This document shows positions 1 through 4,547 of a stretch of 4,615 bases of DNA, one piece after another. The stretch's first letter is position 1; each line of letters opens with the position of its first letter. A model generated the notes under the pieces. The model made no database searches and had not been told where the DNA came from. It worked only from the letters and a program-made list of their open reading frames with translations. Origin of the DNA: a virus (lineage: Duplodnaviria > Heunggongvirae > Uroviricota > Caudoviricetes); IMG/VR virus record IMGVR_UViG_2548876963_000005; one strand, given 5' to 3'. Position numbers and translations under genes: made by a program.

Positions 1-34
1 AAAAAAAAAAAAAAAAAAAAAAAAACAAAAAAAA
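1..34. repeat. Homopolymeric poly(dA) tract (A25-C-A8) at the window edge
   Basis: Read directly from the sequence. The window begins inside the tract, so the true length is unknown. Confidence 0.95.
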
Positions 35-181
35 CATTATACATTAATGATAATTCTTTTTATTTTACACAATATATAACCCTATTTATGTTATGAGTTT
101 TTAATTCAAATTATCATTATAATCAATCGAGACTCAGTCATACTCGCGCAGATATTACTGACTACTCAATACTTAGTACAG

Positions 182-193
182 TTGTTATAACAA
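182..193. repeat. Perfect 12-bp palindrome TTGTTATAACAA in the AT-rich region downstream of stf
   Basis: Self-complementary 12-mer, flanked by TACAG (177-181) and CTGTA (199-203). Function unknown; could be a dimeric protein-binding site. Confidence 0.4.
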
Positions 194-246
194 TAGCTCT
201 GTAATCCTGTGTTACGAAGAGCGATCTAGTAAAACTCAGATGTAAG

Positions 247-3200
247 TTATAGCTCGGATAGCTTTAACTTTGCTTCAAGCTCCTCAACCCTTTTTGTCAG
301 TTTCTGAATATGATGAATGAGTGGAACAACCAGACGGTCATACATCACGCCTTCTGCAACCATCCCATTATCAGACGCTATACCTGGATCATCCTCGTCT
401 GTAAGAGGACGCCAGTGAACATATTGCGGTGCTATCTCTCCGACTTCTTCTGCAATAAGGCCATAATGTCCCCAGTCCTTTCTGTCCCTTTCACAAGTCG
501 AGCGATACCATACAGGACGAAGTTTCAACAACTCGTCCGCGTACCTGTTCTCTAAAGACTCGATATCCGTCTTGTATCGACGGGATGAAGTCGAACGAAA
601 TACCATGTTGTAACCAGCAACCGGACTTACGAACATGTTAGGACTATCGGTTGTTGTCTGAATGTCGAATATTTGCAAATAATAACAACTTAACGTCTGG
701 AAGTTTGCATCTAACGAGCCGCCTTCGAGTTTTGATGACGTGATAAAACTTTTATTGAGTTGGTTAATCTCCGATATGCTGTAAGCGCCAATTTCAAGCG
801 GTGTGGGCAGTTTCTTTGTGTTCAGTGCACGACGCCATCCGGGGGAATAAGCTGTGCCATTAAACACATAGATAAATTCCGCATTAGTGAGTGCGCCAGA
901 GACACTTGTCGTCGTGGCTGTTGTTATTCGAATGGTGTAATAAGTTGCACTGTGGCTGAATACTTCTATCACCGCCCCCGCCAGTGGAATAATGCCGCAG
1001 CCTGTTTCACTGTCTGGTATGGAGGCGCTGTCAGCGTATGCCCAGGCACAGCGTGCCACCCATGCTTTTGTATTGAAGGCACCATTATTCTGCAATATCG
1101 TCACTAACTGAGCCGTTGTTATTGATGCACCATTACTCCCTGTGCCTAACCAGCCAGTTGGAGATGCCGGGCAACCAATATTTGCTGGTGACAGAGAAAT
1201 ATTTGCCGAACCGTCAAACGACACGCCATTAATAGTACGCGCTGTCTGCAACTTCGTGGCAGTAGCTGCATTGCCTGTAGTGCTCTGGTTACCAGTCGTA
1301 TTAACACCAGGCAAGTTAATATTCGCAGTACCATCAAAGCTCACACCGCCGATAGTTCTTGCCGTCTGTAGTTTTGTAGCTGTTGCCGCATTACCCGTAG
1401 TGTTCTGGTTACCTGTCGTATTTACTCCCGGAATGCTGTCTTTTTTGGTATAAATCTGAGTCCAGTCTTCCTCAAAGCCATAACCATCACGCGAAGAACG
1501 GTAAAACAGACCGCCATTCTTGTAATGAGCGCGAATCTGGAGAGTCTGGCAACTCCCCACACCGGTATAAAAGTTTGCAACAAGACAGGAGTCGCCAGAA
1601 CGCGTGACATTATATGCACCGGATTCAGCATTCCACGGAACGGCTCCATCCGAATCCGCATAAGCCCCCGTCGCACGTAGGGCAAATGCACCAATATTTT
1701 CCGGCGTGAGATTAATATCCGCCGAGCCATCAAACTTAACACCGTTAATTTTTTTGGCTGCCGCAAGTTTCGTCGCGGTATCGGCGTTCCCCTTCAGTGC
1801 CCCGGTGATCCCACCAGTAACAGACAACGGACCTGAAACTGTTCCTCCGGTTGTTGGCAGTGCTCCAATATCTGATGGTGTAGGTTTCTGATGTGAGCTA
1901 TACATCGTATAAACAACACCATCGGTAACGCCGGAAGGCTTACTCGCTGAATAGGCTGGCGATGTATAAACAGAAACTGACGCATTTGCAGTACAATCCC
2001 AATGGATATTTACACTCGTCGCATAATTGCCAGTCTCAACGTAAATATCATATGTATCGCCGGATGTGTTGATCCAGGCGAAATTCGTTAATCCGACGGC
2101 TGTACGCTTCCACAAAGCTCCGGTAATCCCTTTGGGGTTTCCATTGCCTGCTCGTAGAACCAGTTCTGAAATACCTGCCTGCTGTGGGGAGCCGACGTTG
2201 TATCCGGCACCACCAATCAATGTGATGTAAACGATGGAACTCGCTTGTGGCATGGTAACCGTAGCCAGTTTGAACCACCCAGCCCCGCCAGAGAAAGACA
2301 TCGTTACTGAATTTAAAGTACCAATATCTTTCGGCGTTAATGTGATATCCCCAGTCAGTGCTTTCCCGTTAATTTTTCGGTCAGATGGCACCCTGCTGTT
2401 CGCATTGTCATTGACTGCTTTAACTGCCTTTGGCGTTGCGGCCAGCGATTCACTGGTGCTGTCGACAGCACTGCTAAGTTTCACAACACCTTTAGTGGTA
2501 AGGCTTGCGTCTTCCATCGCAACCGCACCGGCAATCTCTTCAGCACGATCAGCAGCAGCTTCCGCACGGGTCGCAGCGGATTCAGCAGCAGTTTTGCTCT
2601 GAGATGCAGCCGTCGCACTGCCTGCCGCCTCTGTTGCTTTCGTGGATGCCGTTGAAGCACTACCCTTCGCAGCTGACGCCTGCCTGATCGCCTCATCTTT
2701 TGAAGCGGACGCCGAGGTGGCTGATGCAGACGCAGAACTTGCAGATTCAGCAGCTGCCGCCTTAGAGGAAGCGGCATTGTCTTCTGAAGTCTTTGCATTT
2801 GTTTCAGAGGATTTTGCTGCCGATGCTGAATTTTTAGCAGCTGTAGCCTGATTCGTCGCCTCAGTCGCTTTTGCGGTAGCTGTTGTCGCTGATGACGACG
2901 CGCTTTCCGCCGATTTCCCGGCGGCGGTGGCACTGGCTGAGGCCTGCCCGGCACTTGTTGACGCGGCACTGGCAGACGACGCAGCCGCTGTTTTTGAGTC
3001 TGCTGCTGCGGAGGCACTCTGTTCCGCTGCCGTTTCAGAAGCCCTGGCGTTCGTCTCGGACGTTTTTGCCGCCTTCGCGGAATTTCCTGCCGCCGTAGCC
3101 GAGGAAGCTGCACTACTGGCGCTCGAGGCTGCGCTCGTTTCTGATGATTTTGCCGCCTCTTTTGAAGCCGCCGCATCCCGGGCTGAGGTGGCAGCGTCTG

Positions 3201-3888
3201 ACGCTTTCGTGGTCGCGGTGGATGCTGAGGTGGCTGCGGATTGTTGTGACGCTGCCGCGTTCGTTTCTGACGTTTTCGCGGCACTGGCACTGGTGGCCGC
3301 CGCACTTTTTGAGGACTCTGCAGCGGCAGCACTTTTTGAGGCTTCAGTGGCCTTTGTTGATGCTGTTCCTGCGCTGGAAGATGCTGACTGAGCAGATGAT
3401 GCAGCCTGTCCGGCTGACGTGCTGGCTGCGCGTGCTGAGTCTGCAGCATCAGTCGCATGGGTTTCCGCCTCACTGGCAGATGTGCTGGCATCGCTGGCTG
3501 ACTTCTTCGCGGCTTCCGCATTCTGTGCCACTGCGGACGCGTTACGCGCCACCTCTTCCACCATCAGTTCAAAACGGCGCAGTGCCTCCGGACGGGCATC
3601 ATCCTCCGTCATTGCGCCGAGAAAATCATTCAGCGTACCCGGCTTTGAATCCTCATACACTGTGATGGTCCCGGCATGCGAAGGCGGAAAACCTTCAACC
3701 AGCAGGGTGACGCTGTACTGGCCATACTCAACGTCCATACTATAACGCCCGGCTTCATCCGGATTTTCTGAGGCCACCGTGTTCACCACCACCGTGGTGC
3801 TGTTGCGTCTGGCCTTTAGCTGAATGGTGCAGTTTTGTACCGGTTTGCCTGCTCCATCTTTCAGTACACCTGAAATCTTAACCGTCAT
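247..3888 (-). CDS. stf: Side tail fibre protein, mosaic: lambda-Stf-like N-terminal half, tail-fibre repeat shaft, divergent distal region, C-terminal intramolecular chaperone (self-cleaving) domain
   Basis: Single open frame of 1215 codons in the supplied ORF track (247..3894 from a GTG). An in-frame ATG at 3886-3888 gives MTVKISGVLKDG..., which matches the lambda Stf N-terminus as I recall it (MAVKISGVLKDG...), and is preceded by GGGGTGA 5 nt upstream. Stop is TAA at 247-249. Protein aa 1-~470 resemble lambda/Rac-type Stf including the long Ala/Ser/Thr-rich segment. aa ~745-815 (VPWNAESGAYNVTRSGDS...GLFYRSSRDGYGFEE) also resemble lambda Stf. The C-terminus carries an S-x-R-x-K-x-D-I type motif and a coiled-coil-like tail. 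Confidence 0.9.
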   Translation of the reverse strand: MTVKISGVLKDGAGKPVQNCTIQLKARRNSTTVVVNTVASENPDEAGRYSMDVEYGQYSVTLLVEGFPPSHAGTITVYEDSKPGTLNDFLGAMTEDDARPEALRRFELMVEEVARNASAVAQNAEAAKKSASDASTSASEAETHATDAADSARAASTSAGQAASSAQSASSSAGTASTKATEASKSAAAAESSKSAAATSASAAKTSETNAAASQQSAATSASTATTKASDAATSARDAAASKEAAKSSETSAASSASSAASSATAAGNSAKAAKTSETNARASETAAEQSASAAADSKTAAASSASAASTSAGQASASATAAGKSAESASSSATTATAKATEATNQATAAKNSASAAKSSETNAKTSEDNAASSKAAAAESASSASASATSASASKDEAIRQASAAKGSASTASTKATEAAGSATAASQSKTAAESAATRAEAAADRAEEIAGAVAMEDASLTTKGVVKLSSAVDSTSESLAATPKAVKAVNDNANSRVPSDRKINGKALTGDITLTPKDIGTLNSVTMSFSGGAGWFKLATVTMPQASSIVYITLIGGAGYNVGSPQQAGISELVLRAGNGNPKGITGALWKRTAVGLTNFAWINTSGDTYDIYVETGNYATSVNIHWDCTANASVSVYTSPAYSASKPSGVTDGVVYTMYSSHQKPTPSDIGALPTTGGTVSGPLSVTGGITGALKGNADTATKLAAAKKINGVKFDGSADINLTPENIGAFALRATGAYADSDGAVPWNAESGAYNVTRSGDSCLVANFYTGVGSCQTLQIRAHYKNGGLFYRSSRDGYGFEEDWTQIYTKKDSIPGVNTTGNQNTTGNAATATKLQTARTIGGVSFDGTANINLPGVNTTGNQSTTGNAATATKLQTARTINGVSFDGSANISLSPANIGCPASPTGWLGTGSNGASITTAQLVTILQNNGAFNTKAWVARCAWAYADSASIPDSETGCGIIPLAGAVIEVFSHSATYYTIRITTATTTSVSGALTNAEFIYVFNGTAYSPGWRRALNTKKLPTPLEIGAYSISEINQLNKSFITSSKLEGGSLDANFQTLSCYYLQIFDIQTTTDSPNMFVSPVAGYNMVFRSTSSRRYKTDIESLENRYADELLKLRPVWYRSTCERDRKDWGHYGLIAEEVGEIAPQYVHWRPLTDEDDPGIASDNGMVAEGVMYDRLVVPLIHHIQKLTKRVEELEAKLKLSEL
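250..588 (-). other. C-terminal intramolecular chaperone / autoproteolytic domain of Stf (endosialidase-chaperone, peptidase S74-like), aa ~1103-1215
   Basis: Motif S1103-S-R-R-Y-K-T-D-I1111 fits the S-(D)-x-R-x-K-x-(N/D)-I signature at the self-cleavage site of endosialidase and T5 L-shaped tail fibre C-terminal chaperone domains. It is followed by ~100 aa ending in a heptad-like EELEAKLKLSEL tail. Recognised from memory of the family, not searched. Confidence 0.65.
1192..1431 (-). repeat. Two tandem 120-bp (40-aa) direct repeats inside stf (aa 822-861 and 862-901)
   Basis: Protein units PGVNTTGNQNTTGNAATATKLQTARTIGGVSFDGTANINL and PGVNTTGNQSTTGNAATATKLQTARTINGVSFDGSANISL. By my manual codon-by-codon count they share 36/40 aa but only about 85/120 nt. 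Confidence 0.85.
1693..1755 (-). repeat. Conserved tail-fibre linker motif, copy 2 (aa 714-735, KKINGVKFDGSADINLTPENIG)
   Basis: Same motif as copy 1, about 620 bp away. DNA blocks accaatat(t/c)tt(c/t)cggcgt and ccgttaattttt are nearly identical between the copies. Confidence 0.7.
2311..2382 (-). repeat. Conserved tail-fibre linker motif, copy 1 (aa 505-528, DRKINGKALTGDITLTPKDIGTLN)
   Basis: K-I-N-G-x-x-(L/F)-x-G-x-x-D-I-x-L-T-P-x-D/N-I-G pattern typical of the phage tail fibre repeat shared among lambda Stf, P2 H, Mu S and T4 gp37-type fibres. Shares short near-identical DNA blocks with copy 2 (for example cccgttaatttt versus accgttaatttt). Confidence 0.7.
2515..3549 (-). repeat. Low-complexity Ala/Ser/Thr-rich coding segment of stf (aa ~116-460)
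   Basis: About 345 aa composed almost entirely of A, S, T with scattered K, E, Q, N, D, G. The DNA is GC-rich and internally repetitive (gc[atcg] codon runs), which opens long spurious ORFs in other frames on both strands. Confidence 0.85.
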
Positions 3889-3891
3889 ATT

Positions 3892-3899
3892 CACCCCAC
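3892..3899 (-). promoter_or_regulatory. Shine-Dalgarno region for stf (GTGGGGTG, 5-nt spacer to the ATG at 3888)
   Basis: Minus strand GTGGGGTGAATATG. The purine-rich GGGG(T)G sits directly 3' of the terminator U-tract. Confidence 0.55.
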
Positions 3900-3926
3900 A
3901 AAAAAGCCCGCCTGAACCGGCGGGCT
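3898..3926 (-). terminator. Rho-independent terminator downstream of lom, immediately upstream of the stf ribosome-binding site
   Basis: Minus strand reads AGCCCGCC-GGTTCA-GGCGGGCT followed by TTTTTGT: a perfect 8-bp GC-rich stem (3905-3912 pairing with 3919-3926), a 6-nt loop and a U-tract. It starts 22 nt after the lom TGA stop. Confidence 0.7.
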
Positions 3927-3947
3927 TTCATCACGCTGTACTACTAA

Positions 3948-4547
3948 TCAGAATTTATAACCGACACCTACGATGAAACTGTCAGTGCGCCAGTCGCCAC
4001 TGCCGGAACCTTCATAAGCGACATCAATGGCCACCGATTCGGTCGGGTTAAACTGCACGCCAGCTCCCCACGCCATAGAGGTGTTACTGTGGCGAGCGTC
4101 ATCACTTCCGGTCAGCACATCGTGCGTTTTCCCCTTGCTGTCGGTCACCTGCAGATAATCCCCGGAGAAGGTCGACACACGGCTGTAAGCCACACCCGCC
4201 ATCGCATACGCACTGAACCATTCATTCACGCGTACAGACGGACCCGCCATCACGCTGAACCAGCGGTTACGCACGGAATCTTCATGCCAGCGGGTATCGC
4301 TGTAACGGGTCAGCTGGCGATTCTTGTCTCCTGCATAGCTGAATGACGTCACCAGCCCCAGCGTGTCCGTAAATTCATAACGGTATTTCACGTTAATGCC
4401 CTTCAGGTCATCGCTGCCTGGCATATCAGTATGGGTCTGAAGATACCCGGCGCTTAGTGTGGACTGATGCTCTGCTGCGCTCGCTGGCGTACCAGCGGCA
4501 ACCAGCCAGACTACTGCGGACAGAATAACAGCACATAATTTACGCAT
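3948..4547 (-). CDS. lom: Lom, Ail/Lom/OmpX-family outer-membrane beta-barrel protein (lambda lom homologue)
   Basis: 199-aa ORF. N-terminus MRKLCAVILSAVVWLVAAGTPASA-AEHQ is a typical Sec signal peptide with an AxA cleavage site. The rest (STLSAGY...GINVKYRYEFTDTLG...SFSYAGDKNRQLTRYSDTRWHEDSVRNRWFSVMAGPSVRVNEWFSAYAMAGVAYSR...VGVGYKF) matches lambda Lom nearly residue for residue as I recall it, and ends in the C-terminal aromatic residue typical of OMP beta-barrels. Position immediately upstream of stf matches the lambda gene order J-lom-stf. SD GAGAGG lies 5 nt upstream of the ATG. Confidence 0.93.
   Translation of the reverse strand: MRKLCAVILSAVVWLVAAGTPASAAEHQSTLSAGYLQTHTDMPGSDDLKGINVKYRYEFTDTLGLVTSFSYAGDKNRQLTRYSDTRWHEDSVRNRWFSVMAGPSVRVNEWFSAYAMAGVAYSRVSTFSGDYLQVTDSKGKTHDVLTGSDDARHSNTSMAWGAGVQFNPTESVAIDVAYEGSGSGDWRTDSFIVGVGYKF

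Follow-up and report, generated by a model that had tools for sequence, protein, structure and literature searches.

Introduction

Tail fibers help set phage host range. Mosaic fiber genes are described for lambda Stf, P2 H, P1 S, Mu S and T-even gp37 in the literature of 1992–1994 (Haggard-Ljungquist et al. 1992; Sandmeier et al. 1992; Sandmeier 1994; all as cited in PMC3945230), and recombination between conserved motifs at the T-even distal fiber locus is attributed to Tetart, Desplats and Krisch (1998, J Mol Biol 282:543, as cited in PMC10879196). Experiments have shown lambda to recombine by means of Red with Rac and Qin over stf-tfa (PMC3945230), and engineered fiber chimeras joined at regions of homology work (PMC9594776; PMC11338833), with functional lambda Stf chimeras having been used to retarget lambda-derived particles (PMC11338833). 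Here we analyze a 4,615-nucleotide (nt) stretch of Caudoviricetes DNA (IMG/VR record IMGVR_UViG_2548876963_000005; the whole stretch is called the window), in which the open reading frame (ORF) 247..3894 on the minus strand is, judging from its domains, the side tail fiber gene of a lambdoid prophage. A preliminary description had singled out a block of ∼185 amino acids (aa 529–713) in this fiber, bracketed by two copies of a KING-type box, as a candidate recombination cassette. We show that a module of this region has moved among the fibers of unrelated phages and is still reassorting in Escherichia coli prophages and phage-plasmids. Our explanation is that the fiber is built of serial modules and that the flagged region is one module plus the head of the next, probably reassorted through homologous or relaxed-homologous recombination.

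Segments of the fiber studied here have homologues in the fibers of lambdoid, P1-like, P2-like, T-even, Felix-O1-like and SSU5-like phages, and short conserved motifs lie between these segments; the fiber appears to have a module order of its own and is rare as a whole gene, with at least 80% of it present in only 4 of 5426 complete E. coli genomes. The idea put forward for the T-even distal locus, that short conserved motifs within fiber genes permit segment swaps that alter the fiber, could apply here too. The T-even motifs are reportedly His boxes and glycine-rich islands, whereas the motif here is a GNAxTATKL...FDGS shaft repeat with junctions lying mostly beside it, and the unit swapped here is a predicted mid-shaft knob, not the adhesin tip. 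The fiber StfR of the K-12 Rac prophage resembles ours in its N-terminal domain, Ala-rich shaft, PF03406 motif and the gp37_C-like domain that follows a GNAxTATKL box, but it has a ∼265-aa insert instead of the first box, core and linker, and it ends in a collar and a His-rich needle with a separate TfaR chaperone where our fiber has the domains D3 and S74. The identity tracts described below fit the relaxed homologous recombination by Red/Rad52 that occurs between lambda and defective prophages, an experimentally established way for lambdoid elements in the same cell to trade DNA over stf-tfa (De Paepe et al. 2014, PMC3945230). The features on which the argument turns are the following, in window coordinates.

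2386..2457, minus strand (aa 480–503): Phage_fiber_2 (PF03406) motif, ..SESLAATPKAVKAV.., Pfam E 2e-9
2311..2382, minus strand (aa 505–528): box B1, DRKINGKALTGDITLTPKDIGTLN, a weak partial shaft-repeat copy that travels with the core
1885..2310, minus strand (aa 529–670): core globular domain, the mobile unit, a predicted beta-rich shaft knob
1792..1884, minus strand (aa 671–701): linker PTPSDIGALPTTGGTVSGPLSVTGGITGALK, which holds the commonest right-hand junction at aa ∼692
1681..1791, minus strand (aa 702–738): box B2, GNADTATKLAAAKKINGVKFDGSADINLTPENIGAFA, a full shaft-repeat copy heading the next module
1645..2412, minus strand (aa ∼495–750): tract of recent ancestry common with 'type A' lambdoid fibers
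1432..1644, minus strand (aa ∼751–821): gp37_C-like domain, common to StfR-type fibers, from PF12604 (E 6e-7) and alignments

Results

The block is exchanged independently of its flanks

That the block can be exchanged independently of its flanks, as the preliminary description had suspected, is borne out by StfR, by a matrix of segment identities and by a census of core-bearing proteins; homologues do not always carry the block co-linear with its flanks. StfR has the same flanks around a different insert: it matches the fiber gene to nt 1493 (aa 498, just past ATPKAVK) with 84.7% DNA identity over nt 1–1493, continues into the unrelated ∼265-aa insert and becomes similar again from GNAxTATKL and the gp37_C-like domain. 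The converse arrangement, the same core among many different neighbors, was found as well. Across 95 fetched loci the core is 93–96% identical in DNA to the window with flanks that fall into discrete classes, and a near-identical core is seen with at least three left-flank and at least four right-flank classes. The tract common with the 'type A' fibers is ∼96% identical, against 66–77% in the left and 78–81% in the right flank.

The census covered 118 core-bearing proteins drawn from HMMER representatives and gave at least eight left/right context classes, among them a B1-type box on the left with a GNAxTATKL box on the right (19/118), B1 with a collar domain (13/118), a canonical box with a Gp34_trimer-like module (10/118) and a QNGADIPDK-type left flank with a P2-H-like end (10/118), while other contexts accounted for 39/118. 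A separate homologue search returned partial proteins of at most 280 aa, which are unfit for an architecture census and were set aside.

No segment is better conserved than the core in any comparison, as would be seen if nothing had been exchanged and the block just evolved more slowly than its flanks, mimicking a cassette. The matrix already refutes this reading, to which we give practically no credence. At aa 431–469 the window groups with loci L019, L032 and L040 (96–98%) against L018, L037, L017 and L003 (63–67%), while over the core identity is 91–99% in all loci but L003. At B2 the window pairs only with L018 (97%), with five alleles at 64–81%, and at aa 751–816 L018, L019 and L037 are mutually 97–99% identical while the window is 78% identical to all three. 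One and the same pair, L018 and L019, is 66% identical at aa 431–469, 98% in the core, 64% at B2 and 97% at aa 751–816. The same flank is 97% identical to one relative and 66% to another, both of which have 96% identity in the core, and beyond the block the groupings change over. Because clade membership switches from segment to segment, rate variation is excluded as the cause, and the segment identities are genuine phylogenetic incongruence. The StfR insert is moreover unrelated to the block, and the core also occurs in unrelated fiber backbones. No shift in composition or codon usage sets the block apart: its GC content at third codon positions, 0.443, compares with 0.439 and 0.415 for the flanks.

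Junctions lie mostly beside the boxes

To locate junctions, mismatches were binned along 12 representative relatives, since a model with a single change point chose alignment ends for the most part. On the left, transitions fall at aa ∼485–500, in and just past the PF03406 motif, with a change point at aa ∼489 in 21 loci, and this motif is the commonest left-hand homology boundary, the megablast matches to K-12 stfR and many others stopping at nt 1476–1493. Seven loci have their left transition at aa ∼550, within the core. The commonest right transition is at aa ∼692 (SVTGG/ITGAL): over aa 691–700 mismatches rise from 0 to 8–9 per 30 nt in 7 of the 12 loci and show a smaller rise, to 4–5 per 30 nt, in three further ones, and the megablast match also ends at gene nt 2084. 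Other right transitions are at aa ∼705, ∼750 (15 residues beyond B2) and ∼816, and the L003-type and TH57-type fibers pass at aa ∼665 from the core directly to a collar domain. The commonest joint is just upstream of each GNAxTATKL head, and the fiber is best described as tandem box-headed modules, namely B1 with core and linker, B2 with the gp37_C-like domain, B3, and B4 with D3. Within the core, a short patch at aa 561–605 (window ∼2080–2212) is highly divergent in L057 and L079, with 7–12 mismatches per 30 nt, the rest of their core being ∼96% identical; this looks like a gene-conversion tract within the domain.

No main transition was mapped within aa 505–528, and only alignment ends (aa 711 and 728–731) touch the second box, which argues against the strict form of the cassette idea, that the KING boxes are conserved DNA linkers and that recombination in them moves the ∼185-aa block as a unit. 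The 'type A' tract does cover both boxes, and the T-even locus offers a published precedent (Tetart, Desplats and Krisch 1998, as cited in PMC10879196), but B2 is the most variable DNA segment among close relatives (64–81%, with the core at 91–99%), a box without elevated DNA identity and the opposite of a conserved DNA linker. Many fibers carry the core without either box, direct repeats around a segment within one gene favor its deletion and not its exchange, and a hybrid junction between the boxes, described below, occurs in 1 of the 5426 genomes. With B1 in addition only a weak member of its repeat family, we consider the strict cassette unlikely. In favor of the boxes as exchange sites are that one B1 × B2 hybrid and the alignment ends at aa 711 and 728–731, whereas the main transitions are at aa ∼490, ∼550, ∼692, ∼705 and ∼750; such use is possible but rare.

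The variation in junction position, which includes sites in the core (aa ∼550 in seven loci and the patch of L057 and L079), would also be seen if illegitimate recombination joined fibers anywhere, with no need of homology, and only the products joined at domain boundaries trimerised, in which case junctions would seem to gather near linkers and the boxes would matter structurally only. The P2-like and P1-like contexts without flanking DNA similarity to the window are in keeping with such joins, as is the sole resolved crossover, which spans just 8 nt. Transitions between close relatives nevertheless fall mostly where both partners are alignable and conserved (the PF03406 motif, the linker and VPWNAESG), as homology-dependent exchange predicts, and Red-dependent exchange over stf has been demonstrated (PMC3945230). 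We therefore regard illegitimate joining followed by selection as a doubtful account of the locus as a whole.

The boxes belong to a shaft-repeat family

The bracketing motif pair was found where it had been described, with DRKINGKALTGDITLTPKDIGTLN at aa 505–528 and KKINGVKFDGSADINLTPENIG at aa 714–735 of ORF 247..3894 (window 2311–2382 and about 1690–1755). The two copies have in common an exact 12-nt repeat, AAAAATTAACGG, which encodes K-I-N-G and was located by sequence comparison.

2366–2377, plus-strand letters CCGTTAATTTTT: copy 1 of the exact 12-nt repeat
1742–1753, plus-strand letters CCGTTAATTTTT: copy 2 of the exact 12-nt repeat

This is the sole repeated 12-mer in gene nt 1401–3645, the part that is not Ala-rich, and the ∼555 base pairs between the boxes are without meaningful internal repeat. 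A longer block of 18 nt is present too, but its copies ACGCCGAAAGATATTGGT and ACGCCGGAAAATATTGGT match at only 16 of 18 positions, and the wider 36-nt family around it has 75% identity. B1 and B2 match at 42 of 66 aligned bases. By synonymous resampling, an exact run of at least 12 between them has P = 0.054, and codons are identical at 8 of the 11 common residues against 4.2 expected (P = 0.018), a slight excess that would suit conserved DNA linkers; DNA identity marginally exceeds the level that the amino acids impose.

The motif is not confined to two copies, since further ones occur as TIGGVSFDGTANINLP (aa 847) and TINGVSFDGSANISLSPANIG (aa 887). The box is a 37–40-aa repeat of the form GNAxTATKLxxARxIxGVxFDGSxxIxL, and a hidden Markov model (HMM), for which 56 canonical boxes from relatives were used, detects strong copies at three places, aa 702–738, 834–873 and 874–911, with independent E-values (i-E) of 1e-21 to 1e-26 (B2 1e-21, B3 7e-26, B4 9e-25). 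B1 (aa 506–529) is without the GNAxTATKL head, has a 2-aa deletion and scores 1.7 bits (i-E 0.015), where shuffled sequences have a 95th percentile of −0.2 and a maximum of 2.8. Since P1-like fibers carry a canonical ATKLQTARTINGVSFDGSKNIELTPRSIG box followed by TINSTTMSF at this position, we read B1 as a degenerate positional homologue of the box. Fibers of the relatives sampled have 0–9 shaft-repeat copies, and B1 and B2 are not a special bracketing pair but members of this family.

Most likely the boxes form short intertwined trimeric stretches of shaft between knobs and are conserved mainly for structure, as their sequence similarities suggest. The box resembles the C-terminal spike of the phage L protein Dec (PDB 6e3c), whose tail reads ...NAETADKLSTARTITLTGAVTGSASFDGSANVTIE, although Dec is a capsid protein and the similarity is weak (phmmer E 0.1); it also matches the head-decoration family phrog_3018 (E 9e-8). 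As evidence these likenesses are weak but consistent, and they suggest that the box is conserved for building trimeric shaft. For the box itself we found no solved trimer structure; the T4 gp34 shaft structure 4UXE served as template in PMC6449081.

A second motif, (L/P)(T/S)PxxIG(A/T/C), has five copies at domain ends (aa ∼520, 671, 728, 900 and 1029), and a relative of it, KPTxxD(V/I)GA, flanks the core on both sides in distant homologues. It may be a more general inter-domain joint of these fibers.

A box-to-box hybrid and changes in module content

A synthetic query, made up of B1 sequence to the left of KING and B2 sequence to its right, found a match of one 294-nt piece in E. coli NCCP 13717 (L103; junction in NZ_CP115984.1, 2997060–2997220). 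The fiber there reads ...NSRVPSNRKVNGKALTADITLT/AAHVAAFARRATDTYADADGGVPWNAESG..., and its DNA is L001-type B1 up to GATATCAC and L004-type B2 from GATATCAC on, with a crossover of 8 nt, GATATCAC, or 13/14 matches over GATATCAC[A/T]TTAAC. Compared with L004, this fiber lacks the 250 aa that separate the two DITLT pentapeptides, and it keeps the reading frame. This one case shows that two boxes can be joined in register with the block lost, as the strict cassette would have it, over a stretch that we judge too short for an ordinary homologous-recombination substrate.

Other box-to-box differences in content are the absence of aa 730–821 from L001 and L006 and an extra box in L004. In the 791-aa protein P0075 a unit of boxes, canonical box, core and Gp34_trimer-like module is present as two nearly identical tandem copies, which unequal crossing-over between box repeats would produce, as would a fault of assembly. 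A more general proposal, that the boxes are in-register 'zip points' at which short-homology joins add, delete and duplicate box-headed modules, strikes us as a long shot. If it were true, prophage populations would continually yield fibers that differ in length and domain content, and the NCCP 13717 hybrid and the P0075 duplication would be snapshots of that process.

A weaker variant of the zip-point idea, which recurrent fusions in draft assemblies would suggest, is that illegitimate joins concentrate at the opening codons of B1 (PSARKVNG). Draft-assembly proteins (P0108, P0109, P0111, P0113–P0116, P0044 and P0047) contain in-frame fusions of Nu1, gpA, portal, J, protease-like, primase-like and Stf N-terminal sequences to the fiber, with the breakpoint at an identical fiber codon, just before PSARKVNGKAL at the start of box 1; second recurrent breakpoints lie after NPKGI and, in gpA, after FRVIPI. 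The one fusion that was followed, in L104 (5001–5726), has two junctions with 1–3 nt overlap, the first of which is absent from all 5426 complete genomes. These fusions were set aside as evidence, being probably draft-assembly chimeras or very rare decay products, although the same fiber breakpoint recurs among them.

The core is an autonomous domain found in many phage families

The core of the block (aa ∼529–670, ∼140 aa) is an autonomous domain. A tblastn search found it in 296 phage records of many families, with identities of 94% in lambdoid phi458, 80% in a Yersinia phage with a 37-kilobase (kb) genome, ∼55% in SJ46 and ST64B, 35–49% in the gp37 of T2, K3, RB49 and other T-even phages, ∼41% in Felix-O1-like phages and 33% in SSU5. 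Against 1.84 billion representatives, HMMER matched it to 188 representative clusters, in proteins of 54–2682 aa and at positions that range from residues 1–150 to residues 1585–1713. At least 80% of the block is held by 673 E. coli genomes, ∼110-kb plasmids among them, while a scan of GTDB species representatives gave three loci only. The carriers include lambdoid and P2-like prophages, SSU5-like and P1-like phage-plasmids, T-even gp37 and Felix-O1-like fibers, and segments of our fiber are homologous to fibers of phages with unrelated backbones, which makes this a mosaic gene. The distant core homologues (T2, RB49, TH57, ZZ1 gp37, wV8, ST64B and SSU5) have no KING-type box on the left.

Pfam holds no family for the core, an NCBIfam search gave nothing useful, and in the PDB no sequence match to the core was found, the block matching only the ATPKAVK motif of the Mu fiber protein S (8ju3). 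An AlphaFold2 monomer of aa 495–750, from an input alignment of 34 sequences, is poor, with a mean predicted local distance difference test (pLDDT) score of 53, and shows eight core strands at pLDDT 55–79; a Foldseek search of the PDB with this model gave no match at E ≤ 0.001, and no fold was assigned. The core is accordingly described here only as a predicted beta-rich knob of the shaft. It lies in mid-fiber in the window and just ahead of the collar and needle tip in other fibers, and because of its position here, in T-even gp37 and in the collar-bearing fibers we infer that the module is a shaft element rather than a receptor-binding tip.

Proposed reassortment of a serial-module fiber by recombination

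We propose that each module of this fiber is headed by a box, and that the mobile one would consist of the degenerate shaft repeat B1, a ∼140-aa beta-rich knob (aa ∼529–670) and a Gly/Thr-rich linker, with the full shaft repeat B2 as the head of the following module. Reassortment would proceed by RecA, or by Red/Rad52-type, recombination in any stretch common to two fibers, of which the identity changes point to the ATPKAVK motif, the 93–99% identical core, the GGxTGxLxGNA linker and the VPWNAESG sequence that opens the next domain as candidates. The core, with ∼600 nt at 91–99% identity, may itself supply the homology over which left and right parts are exchanged, because it is the longest near-identical stretch common to otherwise different fibers; crossovers inside it would leave no visible trace. 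Partners would be co-resident lambdoid prophages, phages and phage-plasmids, and the exchange may be ongoing. Rare microhomology joins between box copies, seen once over 8 nt, would add or remove whole modules in register. To these come earlier movements of the knob domain from one phage family to another, unrelated one.

Several points weigh against this proposal. Some 6 of the ∼11 distinct junctions at aa 470–816 lie in linkers, which make up 40% of the length, an enrichment that a rough binomial estimate, not a formal test, gives as not significant. The junctions are read from identity changes, which blur where both parents are conserved, and no crossover was directly observed. The B1 × B2 hybrid is confined to a single one of the complete genomes, in a coding sequence flagged as pseudogene or partial by the annotation pipeline. 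The structural role given to the box draws on weak sequence similarity and a published homology model, not on a solved structure; the AlphaFold2 monomer was poor and the fold search with it uninformative.

Site-specific recombinases of the Cin/Gin/Pin type could also move fiber segments, and such exchange between distantly related phages was proposed by Sandmeier (1994, as cited in PMC3945230) and is favored by De Paepe et al. for ancient exchanges between temperate and virulent phages (PMC3945230). Pin-like recombinase genes lie downstream of tfa in L003, L007 and L010. The window, however, has no crossover core AAACCNNGGTTT, with one mismatch allowed, and neither a recombinase ORF nor a tfa gene adjoins the fiber gene; the junctions, too, are many and at differing positions, which makes an invertase very improbable as the agent. 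Serial modules reassorted by homologous or relaxed-homologous recombination remain the reading that we favor.

The fiber gene and its neighborhood

The remaining features of the gene and its surroundings are as follows.

247..3894, minus strand: side tail fiber gene (stf-like), 1215 aa from GTG, from the ORF list and Pfam
2488..3564, minus strand (aa ∼111–469): Ala/Ser/Thr-rich low-complexity shaft, from the translation
1162..1395, minus strand (aa 834–873 and 874–911): boxes B3 and B4, a tandem 120-nt repeat, from the box HMM
832..1161, minus strand (aa 912–1021): domain D3, common to P1-like and SSU5-like phage-plasmid fibers with 79–83% DNA identity
418..588, minus strand (aa 1103–1159): Peptidase_S74 (PF13884) intramolecular chaperone domain, Pfam E 4e-8
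3948..4547, minus strand: lom-like outer-membrane protein gene, from the ORF and the Ail/Lom family annotation in relatives

The real start of the gene is likely the ATG at 3888, two codons past the GTG, because relatives open with MAVKISG.... The N-terminus matches the full phage_tail_N profile (PF08400, prophage tail fiber N-terminal; aa 3–136, profile 1–134, E 2e-72). The PF03406 motif and the gp37_C-like domain surfaced when fragments of the fiber were scanned against Pfam separately, and on that scan Peptidase_S74 gave E 1.2e-8 over profile positions 1–57 of 58. Such a C-terminal S74 domain marks fibers with an endosialidase-type intramolecular chaperone, a class characterized by autoproteolytic release once the trimer has formed. 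The module order thus runs phage_tail_N, Ala-rich shaft, PF03406 motif, B1 and core, B2 and gp37_C-like domain, two boxes, D3 and S74. An IMG/VR provirus contig (L013) is 100% identical to the fiber gene, and the closest copy in an E. coli genome, a prophage gene of strain 377323_2f annotated as 'prophage tail fiber N-terminal domain-containing protein', is 98.9% identical.

The Ala-rich shaft has a GC content of 0.57–0.65, due to its GCN codons. Its length differs among near-identical relatives: L008 spans only 55% of aa 111–300, and the closest genome copy has 1108 aa against 1215 aa here, with the gap within the shaft. In the region of B3 and B4, a direct repeat (1198–1311 and 1318–1431) has 73% identity.

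The lom-like gene lies directly upstream of the fiber gene, which is the J-lom-stf order of lambda, annotated also in the relatives L003, L004, L008 and L010. Downstream, the search for tfa found no fiber-strand ORF of at least 60 aa in window 1–246, and the S74 domain, going by the sequence, replaces a separate tfa gene. In L008 the gene after the fiber encodes a DUF1653 protein, 329 nt away, and in L010 a gene for a TIR-domain anti-phage reverse transcriptase (6610–8214) lies just downstream of the fiber, tfa and pin region.

Window 1–246, 3′ of the fiber gene, is very AT-rich (GC 0.19–0.37), and window 1–34 is a run of 25 A, then C, then eight A. The downstream region of 377323_2f, otherwise identical, has T8 GG T9 GC (fiber strand) at the same place, followed by unique sequence; the long homopolymer has the look of an artefact, due to sequencing or to the contig end. 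The gap that separates the lom stop from the fiber start contains a GC-rich hairpin, GCCCGCC-tgaacc-GGCGGGC (window 3898–3928), with A6 at one flank and T3 at the opposite flank, which puts T6 after the hairpin on the minus strand. It was read directly from the sequence, is without an entry in the consensus scan, and looks like a putative intrinsic terminator just before the fiber start codon.

Discussion

Mosaic fiber genes, and recombination at conserved motifs within them, have been known since 1992–1998; the gene analyzed here is a further well-resolved example, and the finding leaves the known picture of fiber-gene evolution unchanged. The gene is a test case for mosaicism at conserved linkers versus random joins followed by selection, and its naturally tolerated junctions (aa ∼490–500, ∼692–705, ∼750 and ∼816–820), together with the in-register deletion of a module, are fusion points for fiber engineering.

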